DNA of 64,000 bases from an uncultured virus (IMG/VR IMGVR_UViG_3300034418_009100). Its lineage: Duplodnaviria; Heunggongvirae; Uroviricota; Caudoviricetes. Both the position numbers and the translations under genes were made by a program. How positions within the stretch are numbered: position 1 is the first letter of the stretch; each line of letters opens with the position of its first letter. The notes beneath the pieces were generated by a model that worked only from the letters and a program-made list of their open reading frames with translations, had not been told where the DNA came from and searched no databases. The stretch is from IMG/VR virus record IMGVR_UViG_3300034418_009100; one strand, 5' to 3'. This document shows positions 25,984-44,907 of the stretch, one piece after another.

Positions 25984-26259
25984 ATGTGGAAATCTACAGC
26001 AACCGTTACTAGTAGCACAGGATGGACATTAGAGCAAATTGCCGTCGCTGTTCAACTATTTGAAAAAGAATTAAACAATGGAAATATTGCAGAACCACCC
26101 CTGCCAGATGAACAAATAGGGTCTTTCGATGAAAGTGGATCTCAGTTTATAAGGTATTACCAAACCGAGGCAGATGCAAATTATTGGATAAATTTATTTG
26201 AAACAACAGTGACTGACCATCCAACATACACTTGGGTCCTTGAAGAAGTGTCTGAGTAA
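25984..26259 (+). CDS. hypothetical protein
   Basis: 91 aa, AGGAG RBS. Confidence 0.7.
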   Translation: MWKSTATVTSSTGWTLEQIAVAVQLFEKELNNGNIAEPPLPDEQIGSFDESGSQFIRYYQTEADANYWINLFETTVTDHPTYTWVLEEVSE

Positions 26260-26278
26260 TGTTATCTGCAGTTAACTG

Positions 26279-26307
26279 TTGACATAAAATCCCCGTTACT
26301 ATATAAT
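26279..26307 (+). promoter_or_regulatory. consensus sigma70 promoter of the tRNA array
   Basis: TTGACA-17 bp-TATAAT. Confidence 0.9.
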
Positions 26308-26316
26308 AAGTCTATT

Positions 26317-26393
26317 GCGCTTGTAGCTCAGTTGGTTAGAGCAGTGGACTCATAATCCATTGGTCGCGGGTTCGAGTCCCTCCGAGCGCACCA
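26317..26393 (+). tRNA. tRNA-CAT (elongator Met or Ile2)
   Basis: cloverleaf, CT-CAT-AA loop, GTTCGAG, encoded CCA; 1:72 paired so not an initiator. Confidence 0.9.
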
Positions 26394-26402
26394 GGTTAAC
26401 AT

Positions 26403-26489
26403 GCCCGGATGGCGAAATCGGTAGACGCCTCAGACTTAAAATCTGATATCCGCATGGGTGTGCCGGTTCGAGTCCGGCTCCGGGCACCA
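26403..26489 (+). tRNA. tRNA-Leu(TAA)
   Basis: TCAGA-CTTAAAA-TCTGA, long variable arm, CCA. Confidence 0.95.
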
Positions 26490-26614
26490 CGAGATTATTA
26501 TGAGTTTAGGTTCATTATACCTTTTGATTCAGTTCTTTAATAAACAAGAAATTTGTTTTTGGGACATTCACCAAGATTAATTTTGGATAAGTACAGTACT
26601 TCAAGGAGAACTGT

Positions 26615-26761
26615 ATGGCAGCAAAATCGAAATTAGGTGAAAAACCCCAAGTCAAATTAAAAATTGAAAAGCGTACCAGTCAAGGTGGCAAAGTCAAACG
26701 CTCGAGCATGAACAAAGGTCGAAAGCGTGGTTTTAAAGCATACCGTGGTCAGGGACGCTAA
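26615..26761 (+). CDS. 48-aa highly basic protein
   Basis: MAAKSKLGEKPQVKLKIEKRTSQGGKVKRSSMNKGRKRGFKAYRGQGR; AAGGAG RBS; not in the ORF track. Confidence 0.8.
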   Translation: MAAKSKLGEKPQVKLKIEKRTSQGGKVKRSSMNKGRKRGFKAYRGQGR

Positions 26762-26771
26762 GTAAACACGT

Positions 26772-26848
26772 TCCCTGGTAGCTCAGTAGGTAGTAGCAAC
26801 GGACTGTTAATCCGTGTGTCGTTGGTTCGAGCCCAACCCGGGGAGCCA
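26772..26848 (+). tRNA. tRNA-Asn(GTT)
   Basis: ACGGA-CTGTTAA-TCCGT, GCCA end. Confidence 0.95.
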
Positions 26849-26855
26849 TTATTTC

Positions 26856-26884
26856 TTGACAACTGTAGTTTTTGCATATATAAT
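26856..26884 (+). promoter_or_regulatory. consensus sigma70 promoter
   Basis: TTGACA-17 bp-TATAAT. Confidence 0.9.
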
Positions 26885-26902
26885 ACAGACATAGAGAGAT
26901 AG

Positions 26903-26978
26903 GCCGTCTTAGCTCAGCAGGTAGAGCAACGGATTTGTAACCCGTAGGTCGCCAGTTCGATTCCGGCAGACGGCACCA
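26903..26978 (+). tRNA. tRNA-Thr(TGT)
   Basis: TT-TGT-AA loop, cloverleaf, ACCA. Confidence 0.93.
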
Positions 26979-27076
26979 TATTAAAGCATATCTAGTCGTA
27001 TGTTGAGCCTATTAGGCCTACAACGGTGTACGATGAAATTGCTGTGTTGTAGTGGCATGGTATGCTTTAATATGGT
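26975..27076 (+). ncRNA. stem-closed cassette E1
   Basis: ACCATATTAAAGCATAT...GTATGCTTTAATATGGT terminal stem around a hairpin cargo. Confidence 0.65.
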
Positions 27077-27080
27077 AAAT

Positions 27081-27165
27081 GCCCCTTTGGCGTAATTGGT
27101 AGCCGCGCTGGATTTAGGTTCCAGTACCGAGAGGTGTGAGGGTTCGAGTCCCTTGGGGGGCACCA
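27081..27165 (+). tRNA. tRNA-Leu(TAG)
   Basis: CTGGA-TTTAGGT-TCCAG, long variable arm, CCA. Confidence 0.95.
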
Positions 27166-27173
27166 TATAGTGT

Positions 27174-27247
27174 GCAGGATTCGTATAGTGGTAATACCTC
27201 AGCCTTCCAAGCTGATGCGAGGAGTTCGATTCTCCTATCCTGCTCCA
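27174..27247 (+). tRNA. tRNA-Gly(TCC)
   Basis: TCAGC-CTTCCAA-GCTGA, TCCA end. Confidence 0.95.
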
Positions 27248-27250
27248 AGT

Positions 27251-27327
27251 CGGGGTGTAGCACAGCCTGGTAGTGCGCTTGGTTTGGGACCAAGATGTCG
27301 GAGGTTCGAATCCTTTCACCCCGACCA
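27251..27327 (+). tRNA. tRNA-Pro(TGG)
   Basis: CTTGG-TTTGGGA-CCAAG, CCA. Confidence 0.95.
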
Positions 27328-27334
27328 TTAAGTT

Positions 27335-27410
27335 GGATCGTTAGCTCAGATGGTAGAGCGTCGGCTTTACACGCCGAATGTCGGCAGTTCGATCCTGTCA
27401 CGATCCACCA
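27335..27410 (+). tRNA. tRNA-Val(TAC)
   Basis: TCGGC-TTTACAC-GCCGA, CCA. Confidence 0.95.
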
Positions 27411-27428
27411 TGCTAAATAATCTACCCT

Positions 27429-27502
27429 GGGGGATTAGTGAAGTGGGATCACGCCAGATTTGCATTCTGGAATCAGGAGTTCGACTCTCCTATCCTCCAC
27501 CA
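27429..27502 (+). tRNA. tRNA-Ala(TGC)
   Basis: CCAGA-TTTGCAT-TCTGG, G3-U70 pair, CCA. Confidence 0.95.
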
Positions 27503-27522
27503 ATTAATACTTTAGTATTATA

Positions 27523-27551
27523 TTGACAGTAATTCAGATTTCACATACAAT
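27523..27551 (+). promoter_or_regulatory. sigma70 promoter with upstream TAATAC-N4-GTATTA palindrome (27505-27520)
   Basis: TTGACA-17 bp-TACAAT. Confidence 0.85.
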
Positions 27552-27562
27552 ACACTTAAGTT

Positions 27563-27623
27563 GACGCACATTAGAGATAAGACGGTACTGGTTCGAAACG
27601 GGACTCCTCGTCTAGTGTGTTTC
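27563..27623 (+). ncRNA. stem-closed cassette E2 (short outer stem)
   Basis: GACGCACATTAGA...TCTAGTGTGTTTC; starts just after the promoter and ends 2 nt before tRNA-Glu. Confidence 0.5.
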
Positions 27624-27625
27624 TT

Positions 27626-27700
27626 GCACGGTTCGTCTATCGGTTAGGACACTGGCCTTTCACGCCGGTAAGAGGGGTTCGATTCCCCTACCGTGTACCA
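27626..27700 (+). tRNA. tRNA-Glu(TTC)
   Basis: CTGGC-CTTTCAC-GCCGG, CCA. Confidence 0.95.
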
Positions 27701-27705
27701 AACAT

Positions 27706-27783
27706 AGTACGGTGGCAGAGTGGCCCAATGCACGGGACTGCAAATCCCGAAAACCGTCGGTTCAAATCCGACCCGTACTTCCA
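27706..27783 (+). tRNA. tRNA-Cys(GCA)
   Basis: CGGGA-CTGCAAA-TCCCG, TCCA end. Confidence 0.95.
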
Positions 27784-27784
27784 G

Positions 27785-27997
27785 AACGTTCCGTGTAGCA
27801 ACGGATACTCCGACCCGGAGGATGAGAAGTGGTGTAGCAACCACGGGTGGTTCCAGTCCAACCGAACTGGCGCTGGCAATGCGATAACGGTCCCCGTCGG
27901 GGAGCGGGTGGAAGGCGTGCGTGATGGTATGCTGTTTAACCGAAAGGTGACAGGGTGCTTGATGCGCTATAATTACCGCCGGGGGATGCAGAGCATT
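27785..27997 (+). ncRNA. unidentified GC-rich structured RNA
   Basis: multiple hairpins, twin GTAGCA loops, GAAA tetraloop, long-range pairings; follows tRNA-Cys directly. Confidence 0.65.
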
Positions 27998-28023
27998 TGT
28001 TAACTTAACAAAGGAGAAGATGT

Positions 28024-28272
28024 ATGCAGTTTATTACATTAAATCAAAGGCACCATCTAGGCCGTCGAGGTTTTAAATACGCATTTGTGTTTAAGACCTA
28101 CTCTCAAGAACGGCCTAGCGAATATGCAATTAGTGAAATGGTAAGGAAAGCAGAAGGCATGGGGTATGATAACACATTCTATGGCAAGAGTCCTGGCAAT
28201 TGCGAGCGCAGGCCTTACTACGTCGGATTTAACAACGAAACAACTGCAACATTGGTACAATTGCAGTTATGA
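28024..28272 (+). CDS. hypothetical protein
   Basis: 82 aa, AAGGAG RBS. Confidence 0.7.
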   Translation: MQFITLNQRHHLGRRGFKYAFVFKTYSQERPSEYAISEMVRKAEGMGYDNTFYGKSPGNCERRPYYVGFNNETTATLVQLQL

Positions 28273-28287
28273 TAAAAGGAGAAAGCA

Positions 28288-28428
28288 ATGAAGCCAAAAC
28301 AAATCGCTAGGCAACGTAACCGCTTCGTTGCTTTGGCATTAATGAGAAAAGCGGGCGCACATCGCAAGTCTAACAAGGCCTTGCGTAGACAACACAAAGC
28401 GTCCTTAGATCAGTCGGTAGAGCAGTAG
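28288..28428 (+). CDS. 46-aa basic protein
   Basis: MKPKQIARQRNRFVALALMRKAGAHRKSNKALRRQHKASLDQSVEQ; AAGGAG RBS; not in the ORF track. Confidence 0.7.
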   Translation: MKPKQIARQRNRFVALALMRKAGAHRKSNKALRRQHKASLDQSVEQ

Positions 28429-28514
28429 ACCATATAAAAACACATCGTCCTAGAAGCAGTGAGATGAAGACACAATAGGCTCACAAGGGGTGTCACGGTG
28501 TGTTTCTATATGGT
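28429..28514 (+). ncRNA. stem-closed cassette E3 with pseudoknot-capable cargo
   Basis: ACCATATAAAAACACATCGT...ACGGTGTGTTTCTATATGGT. Confidence 0.65.
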
Positions 28515-28584
28515 TTGACAAAAGGTGGTATGTAGTCGTTGTCAATGCGGCGAGGACCGGGATTCCTTTCTCAGCAACACTGAG

Positions 28585-28686
28585 ACCATATTGAAGCACA
28601 TTGCCCGCCGTGGTAGGGGAATCGCAAACAGATTGATCACTGTTGCCGATGAGTGGTTCGAATCCAACAGTGTGCTTCAATATGGT
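28585..28686 (+). ncRNA. stem-closed cassette E4 with T-loop-containing cargo
   Basis: ACCATATTGAAGCACATTG...CAGTGTGCTTCAATATGGT; interior GTGGTTCGAATCCA. Confidence 0.7.
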
Positions 28687-28689
28687 AAT

Positions 28690-28776
28690 GGAGATGTAGG
28701 AAAATTGGTAACCCCAGCGGACTGTAAATCCGCCGCCCGAAAGGCACTGTGTGTTCGACTCACACCGTCTCCACCA
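28690..28776 (+). tRNA. tRNA-Tyr(GTA)
   Basis: GCGGA-CTGTAAA-TCCGC, long variable arm, CCA. Confidence 0.95.
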
Positions 28777-28850
28777 TATTGAAGCACATTCTAGGCACGA
28801 TCTTTACTGCAGGTGCCGACGAAAAAGAGACGAGTGTGCTTCAATATGGT
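28773..28850 (+). ncRNA. stem-closed cassette E5 with pseudoknot-capable cargo
   Basis: ACCATATTGAAGCACATTC...GAGTGTGCTTCAATATGGT; overlaps the Tyr CCA and the Asp 5' end. Confidence 0.7.
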
Positions 28851-28922
28851 CTGTTAGTTAAACGGTTATAATAATGGCCTGTCACGCCGTAGTCAGGGGT
28901 TCGACTCCCCTACAGACCGCCA
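28848..28922 (+). tRNA. tRNA-Asp(GTC)
   Basis: ATGGC-CTGTCAC-GCCGT, GCCA end. Confidence 0.95.
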
Positions 28923-28928
28923 AATAAA

Positions 28929-28957
28929 TTTACATACTGATTATAAATCAGTATAAT
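28929..28957 (+). promoter_or_regulatory. sigma70 promoter with palindromic spacer
   Basis: TTTACA-17 bp-TATAAT; TACTGATT..AATCAGTA inverted repeat. Confidence 0.75.
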
Positions 28958-28966
28958 TACTTTAAA

Positions 28967-29053
28967 GGAAGGTTGGCAGAGTGGTAATGCACCGGATTGC
29001 TAATCCGCCGCTCAGAAATGGGCGCACAGGTTCGAGTCCTGTACCTTCCGCCA
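28967..29053 (+). tRNA. tRNA-Ser(GCT)
   Basis: TT-GCT-AA loop, long variable arm, GCCA end. Confidence 0.93.
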
Positions 29054-29057
29054 TATT

Positions 29058-29133
29058 GCGGGATTAGCTCAGTTGGTAGAGCGAATGCTTGCCAAGCATT
29101 AGGTCGTCGGTTCGAACCCGATATCCCGCTCCA
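29058..29133 (+). tRNA. tRNA-Gly(GCC)
   Basis: AATGC-TTGCCAA-GCATT, TCCA end. Confidence 0.95.
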
Positions 29134-29148
29134 CTTTAGTTTATAACT

Positions 29149-30240
29149 TTGATTAATATATATTCTGCTGGTCATGTTTATGGTTTAGAGTTTTTGCCTG
29201 AATCTTATGAAATCTTTAATAATTTAGAAAAAATAAAACTAGCACCAGGCGCACGTCTTGCATTTATAAGCAACGCAGATATCTGGTATTCTTTACCAAG
29301 AGAATTTTTTGATGTAGTTGTTTTTTGGACAACTGAATCGTTATCTTGGGAAAGAACTCAAAACAAACCCATTGTCCCTTTGTCAGATAAAGATATTATT
29401 TTCAGCAGTAGCAAAGGGCCAAACAATGATATGGATCTGCTTTATTGGTATGATTATGTATCTGGGATTTATAAATCAAAGTTTAAAAAATTTTTGCCAA
29501 GCCTTGAAATATCAAATCATAAGTTGTTTTGTAGTTTAGGTAAAGCCAGATTGCCAAGGACTTATGCTTATTGTAAATTCCACGAATTAAATCTAATAAA
29601 ATCTAATCATATAAGTTTTGTTTCACGTAAAATTTATAAAAATATAGAATCCCCTGACAATATGGATTTTGAAGGTCAATCTAAAATGGCAGATTTTGTT
29701 GCAAATTCTTCTATTGACCTACAAGAACCTATAAAAATTAATTTCAAAGATGATTGGAATATCAGTAAGAGGCAAAATGATTGGTATACAAAACTTAGAA
29801 ATACAAACGTAAATGTTTCTGCAATTTTCCCAACTAAAGTGATAAATCAGTCTAGTTTGCTTTTTGTATTTGAAACGGAAATGCATAATTTAGAACACTT
29901 TTCAACAGAAAAAACAGTAAAGGCACTTATTAGTGGAAGACCATCTATTATAATTGCATCTCAAGGTTATCTTGATTATGTTAAAAAACTAGGGTTTAAA
30001 ACATGGGACGGGATTATCGATGAAAAATATCAATATTATTCATGCCATAAAACAAGAATAGACAAAGCAATAAACGAAGCACAACGTTTTTTTTCAACCG
30101 ATGTACTCGGTAGCAAATGCCTACAAAAACAAATTAAAGACATTGCAGTTTACAATAGGAATCATTTATTTCAAACCGACTGGAAATATAACCAAAAAAT
30201 TGCTTGGAACAAAATTTTAAAAAAACTGAAAAATAAATAA
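29149..30240 (+). CDS. AT-rich accessory protein, glycosyltransferase-like
   Basis: FVFETE..FSTEKTVKAL..GRPSIII..LGFKTW..IIDE.Y; start codon uncertain. Confidence 0.55.
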   Translation: MINIYSAGHVYGLEFLPESYEIFNNLEKIKLAPGARLAFISNADIWYSLPREFFDVVVFWTTESLSWERTQNKPIVPLSDKDIIFSSSKGPNNDMDLLYWYDYVSGIYKSKFKKFLPSLEISNHKLFCSLGKARLPRTYAYCKFHELNLIKSNHISFVSRKIYKNIESPDNMDFEGQSKMADFVANSSIDLQEPIKINFKDDWNISKRQNDWYTKLRNTNVNVSAIFPTKVINQSSLLFVFETEMHNLEHFSTEKTVKALISGRPSIIIASQGYLDYVKKLGFKTWDGIIDEKYQYYSCHKTRIDKAINEAQRFFSTDVLGSKCLQKQIKDIAVYNRNHLFQTDWKYNQKIAWNKILKKLKNK

Positions 30241-43453: not shown

Positions 43454-44907
43454 TGGAATGTAGATTAATTATTCGTGACGAAGTTAATGTTAAACTGGAA
43501 GGTTTAGACTTAGTCACACGCAAAACACTGGTAAACAAATTCAAGTATGAAATACCTGGAGCACGTTACTTGCCAGCAGTGAGACTGGGACGCTGGGATG
43601 GTAAGGTTCCCTACTTTAATTTAGGTGGCACAACCTACATCAACTTACTGCCCGACATCCTACCTGAACTTGAAAGTCGTGGCTATGACATTGAAGTAGA
43701 TGATGTCCGTGACTACAGAACTACATTCGAGTTTGACAAAGTAACAGAGTCAACGTTTGCAGATATTGCTTGGCCCAAAGGACATCCTGCGGCAGGTGAG
43801 CCTATTGTATTACGGGATTACCAAATTGAAATTATCAATAAGTTTTTAGAAAATCCACAGTGTATACAGGAAGTGGCCACAGGCGCAGGCAAAACTATTA
43901 TGACCGCGGCGCTAAGTGCAAGTGTGGAGCAGTATGGTAGAACTATTGTTGTTGTGCCCAGTAAGAGTTTGGTCACACAGACAGAAGCAGACTATGTCAA
44001 CATGGGTTTAGACGTTGGTGTGCTGTTCGGTGACCGTAAAGAATATACAAGAAAGCACACAATCTGTACTTGGCAAAGTCTAAACGCATTACTAAAAAAT
44101 ACACGCAACTACGAAGCAGATGTTACAATACAGGAGTTTGTGGAAGACGTAGTCTGTGTAATGGTAGACGAAGCACACAGTGCCAAAGCAGATGCACTAA
44201 AAAGTTTGCTGACCACAGTGTTTGCCCGCATACCTATTCGTTGGGGACTAACTGGTACCATACCTAAAGAAGATTTTGCTTTTCAGGCACTGAACTGTTG
44301 TATTGGTCCTGTGGTAGGAAAACTTAGTGCCAGCGAACTTCAAGAAGCAGGACACCTCAGTAACTGTCACGTAAATATTGTACAGTTATCGGATTACGTA
44401 GAATACAAAGATTATCAAAGCGAACTGAGATATCTATTAGAAACAGATTCCAGACTAGATTACGTCAGTGAACTTGTAAACCGTATTGCAGAATCGGGCA
44501 ATACATTAGTTCTTATTGACAGGGTGGGTCCTGGCAAGGAACTGGCAAGTAAAATCAACAACGCCGTTTTTGTCAGCGGCGCAACCAAAGCAAAGGATCG
44601 AAAGGACGAATATGACGAGATTGCTACTAGCACCGATAAGGTTATTGTTGCGACTTATGGTGTGGCCGCTGTGGGTATTAACATTCCTAGGATTTTCAAT
44701 TTGGTTCTTGTGGAACCCGGAAAGAGCTTTGTACGTGTTATCCAGTCAATTGGCCGAGGCATTAGAAAGGCAGAAGATAAGGACTTTGTCCAGATCTGGG
44801 ACATTACTTCCACCTGTAAATTTGCCAAAAGACACCTCACTAAACGAAAACAATTTTACCGAGATGCACAGTACCCATTCGCCGTTGAGCGAGTAGATTG
44901 GCAGTAA
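43453..44907 (+). CDS. uvsW: superfamily 2 helicase (UvsW-like)
   Basis: WDGK, LRDYQ, ATGAGKT, VDEAH, GLTGT, QSIGRGIR. Confidence 0.9.
   Translation: MECRLIIRDEVNVKLEGLDLVTRKTLVNKFKYEIPGARYLPAVRLGRWDGKVPYFNLGGTTYINLLPDILPELESRGYDIEVDDVRDYRTTFEFDKVTESTFADIAWPKGHPAAGEPIVLRDYQIEIINKFLENPQCIQEVATGAGKTIMTAALSASVEQYGRTIVVVPSKSLVTQTEADYVNMGLDVGVLFGDRKEYTRKHTICTWQSLNALLKNTRNYEADVTIQEFVEDVVCVMVDEAHSAKADALKSLLTTVFARIPIRWGLTGTIPKEDFAFQALNCCIGPVVGKLSASELQEAGHLSNCHVNIVQLSDYVEYKDYQSELRYLLETDSRLDYVSELVNRIAESGNTLVLIDRVGPGKELASKINNAVFVSGATKAKDRKDEYDEIATSTDKVIVATYGVAAVGINIPRIFNLVLVEPGKSFVRVIQSIGRGIRKAEDKDFVQIWDITSTCKFAKRHLTKRKQFYRDAQYPFAVERVDWQ

Follow-up and report, generated by a model that had tools for sequence, protein, structure and literature searches.

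Phage tRNA clusters have for decades been known to host stable small RNAs of unknown role, such as the species 1 and species 2 RNAs of T4, and more recently they have been seen to neighbour giant RNAs such as GOLLD. To our knowledge, the function of the two T4 RNAs is still unknown. Helices that serve RNase III processing include the stems flanking 16S and 23S rRNA and sites of the T7 early region such as R1.1, and we know of no need for a conserved stem sequence at any of them. tRNA punctuation operates in mitochondrial transcripts, in the tRNA-linked pre-miRNA hairpins of murine gammaherpesvirus 68 and in engineered tRNA-guide RNA arrays. Among repeated elements, PeSL (promoter-early stem-loop) cassettes flank protein genes and consist of a terminator-like hairpin and a promoter, and integron attC sites are conserved in structure and not in sequence. 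Finally, a preprint describes UG27 reverse-transcriptase ncRNA units of 135-167 nt, which keep structure but not sequence and lie beside a reverse transcriptase and two accessory genes (bioRxiv 10.64898/2026.09.22.753630).

Here we analyzed the tRNA array of a 64,000-nucleotide stretch of DNA from an uncultured virus (IMG/VR record IMGVR_UViG_3300034418_009100), referred to as the window. An earlier note on this DNA had proposed that five segments of the array (E1 to E5) are closed by one common stem around unrelated interiors. We find that they all belong to a phage-specific, uncatalogued family of tRNA-array spacer hairpins, four as intact copies and one in truncated form. All features given below are on the + strand. 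tRNA-Thr(UGU) (26903..26978; ARAGORN and Rfam tRNA) has ACCA as its last four bases, and these are the first four of the intact hairpin E1 (26975..27076). The 18-bp stem of E1, ACCATATTAAAGCATAT / GGTATGCTTTAATATGGT, encloses a two-hairpin cargo of about 66 nt and ends 4 nt short of tRNA-Leu (27081); E1 scored 50.6 bits against the family model R1 on the + strand and 40.0 bits on the - strand. Intact hairpin E3 (28429..28514; 58.9 bits with R1) has an A.C mismatch at position 9 of its stem and U.G at position 17. It is separated from E4 by a conserved 70-nt module (28515..28588), with homologues in loci L057, L065 and L009, whose 3' end forms a microhelix of 5-6 bp followed by ACCA. The homologues carry a compensatory change in this module (CTCAG/CTGAG versus GCCAG/CTGGC), and the same ACCA starts the 19-bp stem of intact hairpin E4 (28585..28686; 58.7 bits with R1), whose cargo resembles a cloverleaf and has part of a T arm, GGTTCGAATCC, beside the 3' arm. 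tRNA-Tyr (28690..28776; ARAGORN and Rfam tRNA) is placed between E4 and intact hairpin E5 (28773..28850; 59.6 bits with R1), in which a 19-bp stem encloses about 40 nt of cargo. The ACCA of tRNA-Tyr forms the start of E5, whose last 3 nt lie within tRNA-Asp (28848..28922); at the base of the E5 stem, the first three bases of tRNA-Asp, GGT, pair with the CCA of tRNA-Tyr. The use of a preceding tRNA's ACCA by the left arms of E1 and E5, and the end of E5 inside tRNA-Asp, are thus as the note had described them.

E2 (27563..27623) differs from the other four. It retains an inner stem, CACATTAGAG / CTCGTCTAGTGTGTTTCT, and the ends of its cargo, both of which align with intact elements of loci L073, L051 and L126, while the outer ACCATAT / ATATGGT arms are gone. 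By alignment, a sigma-70-type promoter, TTGACA-17-TACAAT (27523..27551), stands in place of the outer 5' arm, with a predicted start of transcription a few bases 5' of E2; on its other side E2 adjoins tRNA-Glu (27626). As judged from sequence, E2 is a true relative of the family and a decayed copy rather than an intact cassette. The claim of one common stem for all five segments therefore holds for E1, E3, E4 and E5, whereas E2 is truncated and its fold was no better than that of shuffled sequence (z -1.04; 27/200 shuffles equally good).

As + strand RNA the intact hairpins fold with z-scores of -5.13 (E1), -3.93 (E3), -4.43 (E4) and -6.87 (E5). The arm consensus ACCATATWRAARCAYA, with up to 2 mismatches allowed, occurs 9 times in the window, and 8 of these occurrences are exact matches that make up the paired arms of E1, E3, E4 and E5; shuffled sequence gave a mean of 1.18 occurrences, and 0/100 shuffles reached 9. 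Direct reading of the stems gave T opposite G at position 17 in all five segments, along with the compensatory variants GCATA/TATGC, GCACA/TGTGC and ACACA/TGTGT. Their interiors share no repeat, except that E1 and E3 are 79% complementary to each other over 19 nt. In the predicted fold of a 527-nt precursor, E3, E4 and E5 are local hairpins, with tRNA-Tyr as a cloverleaf between the last two, and we rejected on this ground a pairing of the arms of neighbouring units around tRNA-Tyr. The + strand of the array carries four near-consensus sigma-70-type promoters; no intrinsic terminator was found on it, and the elements lack a U tract. RNA libraries make up 3 of the 24 listed runs, with 6-7% of sampled words present in each. 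Their contigs on the array are mostly tRNA look-alikes of other organisms, with a few exact 150-nt contigs (26490-26767; 27555-27704); these libraries consist of assembled contigs only, so RNA ends are unreadable in them, and they give no informative cover of E3-E5.

The family extends far beyond these five copies, as both the common stem and the unrelated interiors do. It has at least 200 copies in contigs of uncultured freshwater phages (IMG/VR), and all copies examined were within or adjoining a tRNA array, which bears out the placement in tRNA precursor transcripts that had been suggested for the window. A search for the paired-arm pattern alone gave at least 125 viral loci and at least 138 unique elements. 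At loci having a tRNA, 129/134 elements were no more than 300 nt from it, and 96/134 started on a tRNA NCCA; the next tRNA contained the end of the element, or lay at most 12 nt from that end, in 58/134. Model matches in five whole viral records were confined to the tRNA array. Prokaryote genomes (596 Gb) yielded no more than 6 loci, each on a contig from a metagenome-assembled genome, and megablast and blastn searches of 50,697 deposited phage records returned just tRNA matches or chance matches of 24 nt. At gathering thresholds, Rfam 15 passed 15 tRNAs and no element in the window, in agreement with the note, which had recognised no named family. At E <=10 (26200-29250), the elements reached only mir-653 (20.9 bits against a threshold of 77) and, on E4, tRNA-Sec (20.4 bits, E = 1, threshold 47). 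In twenty related loci, the Rfam matches listed (150 of 311) were all to tRNAs and GOLLD, the latter being found in two related arrays. We found no description of this hairpin family in the published literature.

Across the family, the stem is rich in A/U and makes about two helical turns (18-22 bp), with a length of 18-23 bp in 81% of 201 copies and in 89% of 38 copies. The ACCA that begins its 5' strand belongs to the tRNA ahead of it or to a different small RNA that ends in ACCA, and its 3' strand runs up to the next tRNA or stops a few bases short of that tRNA. Such a helix, placed between mature RNAs of a precursor, has the dimensions of an RNase III processing helix (about 20 bp or more). 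Covariation, which the earlier note had put forward as a check on the stem, is clear: 96.2% of cells are paired, and the covariation score of 0.224 compares with 0.096 in shuffles (0/500 reached it) and with at most 0.080 when partner columns were slid. Compensatory changes were also present at positions fixed by the search pattern, in copies found by the model alone. The U.G asymmetry that the note had read in the window recurs on the transcribed strand throughout the family: position 17 is T.G on the tRNA strand in 88/88 informative copies, and positions 12, 15 and 17 together hold 127 G.U-type cells and 0 A.C-type cells. The same bias toward the G.U type was seen in a p46-anchored set that was chosen independently of the stem. 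That non-Watson-Crick pairs at these three positions are of the G.U type on the tRNA strand only points to a role at the RNA level. Position 9, however, is a sense-strand A.C mismatch in 64/134 copies, and since A.C is G.U on the opposite strand, this position either argues the other way or marks a distinct feature.

Comparison of related loci revealed that units move. Between loci L015 and L066, identity breaks and resumes inside an arm, and one unit is placed elsewhere; whole stem-plus-cargo units recur between different tRNA pairs, and cargos differ at orthologous positions, which bears out the swapping that the note had suggested looking for in related phages. Within one genome, E4 and E5 have identical arms and different cargos, and related phages differ in whether they have the hairpin at their tRNA-Lys/tRNA-His junction. 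Hairpin-bearing and hairpin-free versions of that junction have no spacer in common from which a target-site duplication could be read. These comparisons show that their repetition makes the arms points of recombination, at which units and neighbouring genes are shuffled from phage to phage. Identity that breaks inside an arm, units that recur between different tRNA pairs, identical arms around differing cargos and the varying presence of the hairpin would all fit a hairpin that is at heart a DNA-level recombination module or selfish repeat, whose arms persist by mediating exchange and spread of array segments between co-infecting phages, with transcription and folding as by-products; PeSL cassettes of T4-type phages offer a parallel. 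Exchange of this kind, however, needs identity between copies and not pairing within a copy, whereas strand-specific G.U pairs and compensatory changes are the outcome of selection on an RNA helix. Copies are moreover confined to tRNA arrays, with ends tied to tRNA processing sites, and the five carrier records lack the tyrosine integrase PF00589 (0/5; controls, 14/14 genomes), the Y1 (IS200-type) transposase PF01797 (0/5; control, 6/14 reference genomes) and the reverse transcriptase PF00078 (0/5). We consider this explanation improbable.

The stem might also be passive structured filler, in that any stable spacer hairpin would prevent tRNA misfolding and leave no naked RNA for Rho or RNase E, with shared sequence reflecting descent and gene conversion. 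It is consistent with such a role that other, unrelated closed-stem RNAs of these arrays likewise start at tRNA CCA, that the cargo is dispensable and that the hairpin itself can be absent: it is missing at 6/45 related p46-tRNA-Lys junctions and is therefore not required for maturing the flanking tRNAs. Yet between phages whose large terminases are 59-60% identical, the stem sequence is as conserved as that of neighbouring tRNAs, the specific A.C and U.G pairs are maintained, and helix length is held within a narrow 18-22 bp, which makes filler a very unlikely account of the family. Conservation of sequence beyond pairing suggests a sequence-specific partner or gene conversion; RNase III is not known to need it.

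The apex ranges from a 3-nt loop to about 190 nt. Cargos of 30-190 nt are unrelated between copies and GC-richer (GC 0.49 for cargos versus 0.40 for the window), and they fall into 129 unrelated classes among 201 copies, with no motif in common but the T loop. Sixteen 'empty' hairpins have an apex of just 4-15 nt; the cargo is optional. As a class, interiors are mildly more structured than shuffles (mean z -0.54). A T-loop motif is present in 25/230 cargos, about a tenth; T-arm motifs are sense in 21 cases and antisense in 2, mostly adjoining the 3' arm, and sense T arms beside the stem occur in at least 10 unrelated cargos. ARAGORN and Rfam tRNA called no element a tRNA, and ARAGORN called none of the 11 longest cargos. 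The E3 cargo is more than 95% conserved in three other flank contexts, and E2-type cargo is likewise conserved in several contexts. Judged from GC content, conservation of the E3 cargo and T-arm orientation, the cargo is not pure filler.

We also considered the cargos as antisense RNAs. Against tRNAs of the same locus, the longest complement averaged 7.10 nt versus 7.12 nt in shuffles (177 cargos), and we rejected this role; a 13-nt complement between E4 and tRNA-Glu is a single case that 4/100 shuffles reached. For E3, a complement of 13 nt was found at 43796 within an ORF for a UvsW-like helicase, longer than that in 100/100 shuffles. The complete relative G006 carries the same cargo and lacks the site, and we regard this target as chance; a one-mismatch counterpart in G008 lies inside an unrelated gene.

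Immediately upstream of E3 is p46, a basic 46-aa ORF (28288..28428) whose stop codon is 1 nt 5' of E3. It overlaps a tRNA-Lys remnant (28399..28430), recognised by repeat search and by comparison with intact genes in loci L046 and L055, which keeps the acceptor 5' strand, the D arm and the 5' strand of the anticodon stem; everything from the anticodon loop to position 74 is deleted, and the remnant is joined straight to E3. No intact tRNA-Lys is among the window's 15 tRNAs (ARAGORN). The p46 stop codon lies inside tRNA-Lys, and in relatives p46 precedes and overlaps tRNA-Lys, which the hairpin then follows. Searches of Pfam, PHROG and NCBIfam gave no match to p46, nor did PDB sequences at E <=10, and we rejected homology to ArfA on these results; in the Atlas, p46 reached hypothetical clusters only, together with a weak DUF7230 lead.

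A dedicated phage or host protein might use the conserved stem, including the A.C pair of position 9 and the U.G pair of position 17, as its docking site, with the apices acting as decoys, tRNA top-half mimics, aptamers or guides. This idea overlaps our preferred explanation, given below, and differs in that the cargo and a specific partner would carry the function. It draws on the stem sequence being kept, beyond pairing, across the divergent phages just described, on the cargos conserved in several contexts and the sense T arms, and on non-Watson-Crick pairs (64/134 copies at position 9, 88/134 at position 17) that are far commoner than a transitional state would be. In addition, the conserved, very basic p46 is found upstream of 18/76 hairpin-followed tRNA-Lys genes and of 0/37 without a hairpin. 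Against these points, the candidate partner p46 is absent upstream of 58/76 hairpin-linked tRNA-Lys genes, the many cargo classes share only the T loop, empty hairpins exist, antisense complementarity to same-locus tRNAs is not in excess, and the best antisense match of a window cargo, that of E3, is not conserved. We regard functional passengers with a docking partner as possible but rather unlikely.

Our preferred explanation, which we hold with about even confidence, is that the hairpin serves as a spacer module within the transcript, at which tRNA-processing enzymes and probably also host RNase III would cut to free stem-capped small RNAs. The unit would be co-transcribed with the tRNAs from the sigma-70-type promoters of the array, and an RNase P cut at the downstream tRNA, along with 3' maturation of the upstream tRNA, would help separate the tRNAs. 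The two-turn helix would most likely be cut by the host's double-strand-specific RNase III; phage RNase III was found in 0/5 large carrier records (two are complete), and a host enzyme would thus be required. Through these cuts the apex would be freed as a stable small RNA with the inner half of the stem as its cap, so that the stem may be a processing and stabilising handle and the apex an optional, exchangeable passenger. Several findings weigh against this explanation: the A.C mismatch at position 9, the conservation of stem sequence beyond pairing, the junctions that lack the hairpin and the mild structure of the interiors. A bolder version, which we think unlikely, has the 19-bp stem, with its fixed A.C and U.G pairs, read by a dedicated factor, perhaps p46, and new passengers (tRNA top-half mimics, decoys or aptamers) loaded and then freed by tRNA-processing enzymes, making the tRNA arrays of freshwater jumbo phages a small-RNA expression platform. 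If true, bacterial viruses would have their own version of tRNA-linked small-RNA precursors, one whose cargo can be swapped.

In this family, nature supplies hundreds of variants that share a constant stem and precise junctions with tRNA ends and in which the apex is optional. One short construct is thus enough to study how the RNA is processed, how stable it is and which partners bind it. Should the stem prove to be a dedicated signal for processing or docking, it would explain how passenger RNAs are added to phage tRNA operons, and it could be put to use as a small part that lets designed RNAs be released from bacterial tRNA arrays. If it is just a recombination-prone spacer hairpin, it still documents the reshuffling of tRNA arrays between phages.

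How does the family compare with the systems described at the outset? Like MITEs, REP and attC elements, it has inverted-repeat ends around a variable or short centre, and some of those elements are also transcribed and fold as hairpins. In contrast to them, it shows unrelated interiors in each genome and strand-specific G.U pairs. Unlike MITEs, its copies are not dispersed in the five whole records, and their interiors are unrelated; REP/BIME elements work with RAYT, whereas the Y1 transposase is missing from the carrier records, and integron attC differs both in the integrase, also missing there, and in that the arm sequence itself is conserved in the hairpin family. Bacterial Y RNA (YrlA) with Ro differs as well, since weak YrlA matches fell on tRNAs and not on elements, and Ro/TROVE PF05731 was found in 0/5 carrier records. 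UG27 arrays are similarly phage-borne, sequence-diverse hairpin units gained and lost singly (bioRxiv 10.64898/2026.09.22.753630), while the family studied here has a constant stem sequence, resides in tRNA arrays and is not accompanied by a reverse transcriptase in the five records. PeSL cassettes are likewise repeated intergenic stem-loop modules and points of modular shuffling in phage genomes, but the present hairpins are in tRNA spacers, have variable apices and are free of terminators and U tracts.

The T4 species 1 and 2 RNAs (rnaC and rnaD) are, by annotation, small non-tRNA RNAs in a phage tRNA cluster, on the tRNA strand and directly after a tRNA, and rnaC, a well-folding RNA (z -4.41), has a T arm near its 3' end, as do about a tenth of the cargos. 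The T4 cluster differs in that its best match to R1 was 7 bits (E = 2.5, filters off), and it is without a shared ACCA-anchored 19-bp stem or a family of exchangeable interiors. RNase III helices resemble the stem in that they too span about two turns, separate mature RNAs on one polycistronic transcript, are formed by sequences bordering the released RNA and have a non-canonical pair near the middle. The hairpin family departs from them in that its cleavage is inferred, its stem sequence is conserved across many phages and it starts exactly on the tRNA CCA. In tRNA punctuation, RNAs between tRNAs are freed by tRNA-processing enzymes, as we propose for the hairpin family. Those systems need no conserved stem, whereas the family described here is bacterial and phage-borne and carries a family-wide handle.

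According to the earlier note, five segments of the window's tRNA array are closed by one shared stem, and eight exact copies of the arm consensus indeed pair up as four of these hairpins: E1 (26975-27076), E3 (28429-28514), E4 (28585-28686) and E5 (28773-28850). A ninth match, with 2 mismatches, lies outside the paired elements; shuffled windows contained a mean of 1.18 arm matches, and nine were reached in 0/100. All four have folds far more stable than those of shuffles (z -3.9 to -6.9), and the overlaps with tRNA ends that had been noted are exact. The claim holds less well for E2 (27563-27623), which folds no better than its shuffles (z -1.04). When aligned, E2 has an intact counterpart in three other phages and retains the inner stem and the ends of the variable interior, or cargo; its outer 5' arm is replaced by a promoter and its outer 3' arm by the start of tRNA-Glu. 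This alignment shows E2 to be a decayed copy of the family element.

The window comes from a large uncultured myophage; among its genes are those for a tail sheath, a T4-type large terminase and a UvsX-like recombinase. The terminase shares 57% identity with its counterpart in Pseudomonas jumbo phage PA5oct, which is the nearest relative among deposited phages. The stretch was found in DNA runs labelled freshwater metagenomes, and a 167-kb viral record (G001) has 79% of its sampled words in common with it. In another related record, G004, the large terminase gene (216545-219566) was matched as two segments separated by about 1.4 kb (residues 1-276, 78% identity; residues 274-520, 66%), an arrangement suggestive of an intron, intein or homing element inserted in the gene. 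The flagged region falls within an array of 15 tRNA genes on the + strand (26317-29133), which contains four near-consensus sigma-70-type promoters and in which no intrinsic terminators were found; tRNA-Lys is absent among the window's tRNA genes. Between tRNA-Leu and tRNA-Asn lies a 48-aa basic ORF (26615-26761) that matches phrog_17967 (E = 1.6e-5) and has relatives in two other viral loci, L039 and L058. Positions 26490-26767 are covered by two exact 151-nt contigs from an RNA library.

The family extends well beyond the window. A paired-arm pattern scan of IMG/VR gave at least 125 loci, with 138 unique elements among the matches listed; a covariance model, R1, built from 88 of these found about 68 further copies, which are diverged and lie within those arrays too. 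Another, independent sample took a neighbouring 46-aa ORF, p46, as its anchor instead of the stem, and here the hairpin lay 3' of tRNA-Lys in 39 of the 45 assessable unique loci. Among the matches listed, 134 elements belonged to loci with a tRNA; 129 of them had one within 300 nt, and 96/134 started on the NCCA of a tRNA (Lys 66, Leu 9, Glu 7, Thr 7, Ile 4, others 3). At the 3' side, 34 elements overlapped the start of the following tRNA by 2-3 bases, and a further 24 stopped at most 12 nt away from it. R1 matches were confined to the tRNA array in five whole viral records (two complete, 364 and 400 kb); a MITE was rejected because the copies in these records are not dispersed. The same pattern run over 596 Gb of prokaryote genomes returned only six loci, all on contigs of metagenome-assembled genomes, and the deposited phage genomes searched gave no family match. 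The family is thus almost absent outside phage tRNA arrays. The earlier note had not recognised it as a named family, and a search of Rfam 15 gave no match to the elements.

We then considered the stem as an RNA helix, orienting elements by the tRNA strand. The positions left free by the pattern covary: position 8 (A-U 78, U-A 42, G-C 9), position 12 (A-U 94, G.U 20, G-C 18), position 15 (C-G 105, U.G 19, U-A 9) and position 17 (U.G 88, C-G 33, U-A 13). In the 88-sequence alignment, derived from a pattern that fixes 11 of the 19 pairs, 96.2% of cells are paired, and the covariation score is 0.224 versus 0.096 in shuffles (0/500 as high) and at most 0.080 with slid partner columns. Copies found by R1 alone show compensatory changes also at the pattern-fixed positions, and the p46-anchored set gives the same covariation picture. 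Wherever the pair at position 17 is non-Watson-Crick (88 copies), it is U.G on the tRNA strand; positions 12, 15 and 17 together hold 127 G.U-type cells and 0 A.C-type. The exception is position 9, in the middle of the helix (28437 with 28506 in E3), where an A.C mismatch on the sense strand is the commonest state (64/134 copies; 25/44 in the p46-anchored set), whereas the other variable positions use G.U intermediates on the same strand. Helix length is narrow, at 18-22 bp. We conclude that selection acts on the stem as an RNA helix. Furthermore, the stem sequence is conserved beyond pairing between phages that share only 59-60% terminase identity; this, with the fixed A.C and U.G pairs, leaves room for a specific protein partner.

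The apex is far less constrained. Sixteen loci carry "empty" hairpins of 40-53 nt, most of which fill the spacer from tRNA-Lys to tRNA-His exactly, and the longest cargos reach about 190 nt and contain several arms. The interiors are unrelated, as they had appeared to be in the window: among 201 copies we counted 129 mutually dissimilar ones, with a T-loop as the sole common motif (21 sense versus 2 antisense). In a wider set this motif occurs in 25 of 230 cargos, that of E4 being of this T-arm-bearing kind, and the T stem usually abuts the 3' arm as in tRNA. Interior GC is 0.49 compared with 0.40 for the window, and the folds of interiors are slightly more stable than those of shuffles (mean z -0.54; 7% below -2). 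Cargos are not antisense to tRNAs of their own array, and the one notable antisense match that a window cargo has is not conserved.

Between the closely related phages L015 and L066, whole units have been replaced, with sequence identity resuming within an arm. We infer from this that units are exchanged as modules and that the arms are the recombination points. Judging from homologous loci, some cargos are clearly maintained, namely that of E3 and the E2-type unit. The E3 cargo recurs at >95% identity in three other flank contexts, where the stem shows double compensatory changes at its positions 18 and 20, and the E2-type unit stands 3' of tRNA-Lys with three different downstream neighbours across loci. 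Comparison of homologues also delimited a conserved 70-nt module, 5' of E4 in the window (28515-28588) and present in L057 (2930-3004), L065 and L009, that invariably has a family hairpin on each side. Its end is formed by a microhelix of 5-6 bp (loop CAACA) followed by ACCA; the microhelix stem shows compensatory change, and ARAGORN made no tRNA call on the module.

The ORF p46 (28288-28428, +; relatives L164-L243) encodes a conserved, very basic protein with the consensus MKRKPIVRERNCFVRLALFRKAGAHRKSNKALRR and has 192 relatives in viral contigs; it matched nothing in protein family databases or PDB and nothing named in the Atlas. It is encoded directly 5' of tRNA-Lys(UUU). In 17/18 and 47/47 unique loci of two sets the p46 stop codon falls within that tRNA gene, so that RNase P cleavage at tRNA-Lys would leave a non-stop p46 mRNA. 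ArfA and BrfA follow the same non-stop logic. In the window, the tRNA-Lys gene joined to E3 is deleted from the anticodon loop to position 74, and the remnant (28399-28430) is truncated just after the p46 stop codon.

These arrays hold other RNAs as well. Directly 3' of tRNA-Cys lies a structured, GC-rich RNA (about 215 nt; 27784-27998) that is conserved in 10 related loci, with several helices that appear compensatory by eye and invariant blocks including GATGAGAAGT, GCGCTGGCAATGCGA and CTATAATTACCGCC. It matched no Rfam family at E up to 10 and is put forward as a candidate novel non-coding RNA from phage tRNA arrays. At least two further families have the reverse design, a conserved interior within a variable 19-21 bp closing stem (L040 2799-2921; spacers of L056, L031, L063 and L046). 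Because these stems also start on the upstream tRNA's CCA, finishing in TGG(T), CCA-end pairing appears to hold generally for the passenger RNAs of these arrays. GOLLD RNA occurs inside two related tRNA arrays (L034 2113-2577, -, 211.6 bits; L020 1212-1674, +, 201.7 bits), in both directly followed by a family hairpin (L034 2024-2108; L020 1682-1767).

These results demonstrate units placed between tRNAs, whose helix spans about two turns and pairs in a strand-specific way, and whose apex is optional and exchangeable. We propose that the unit would be co-transcribed with the tRNAs. Stable helices block 3' exonucleases, and a helix beginning on the CCA would leave no single-stranded trailer after the upstream tRNA, whose 3' end would therefore need an endonucleolytic cut, most simply by host RNase III within the helix. 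RNase P would cut at the downstream tRNA, and the inner half-stem and apex would remain as a stable small RNA. The predicted fold of a 527-nt precursor retains E3, E4 and E5 as local hairpins and places a tRNA-Tyr cloverleaf between the latter two. The five carrier records encode no RNase III, tyrosine integrase, Y1 transposase, Ro protein or reverse transcriptase.

In the literature, judged from abstracts and preprint passages, we found no description of the family. The T4 tRNA cluster does not match R1, although T4 rnaC has a T arm near its 3' end, like the T-arm-bearing cargos. Phage tRNA clusters are already known to contain passenger RNAs that are processed, and hairpins in their spacers; what distinguishes this family is its family-wide handle and swappable apex.
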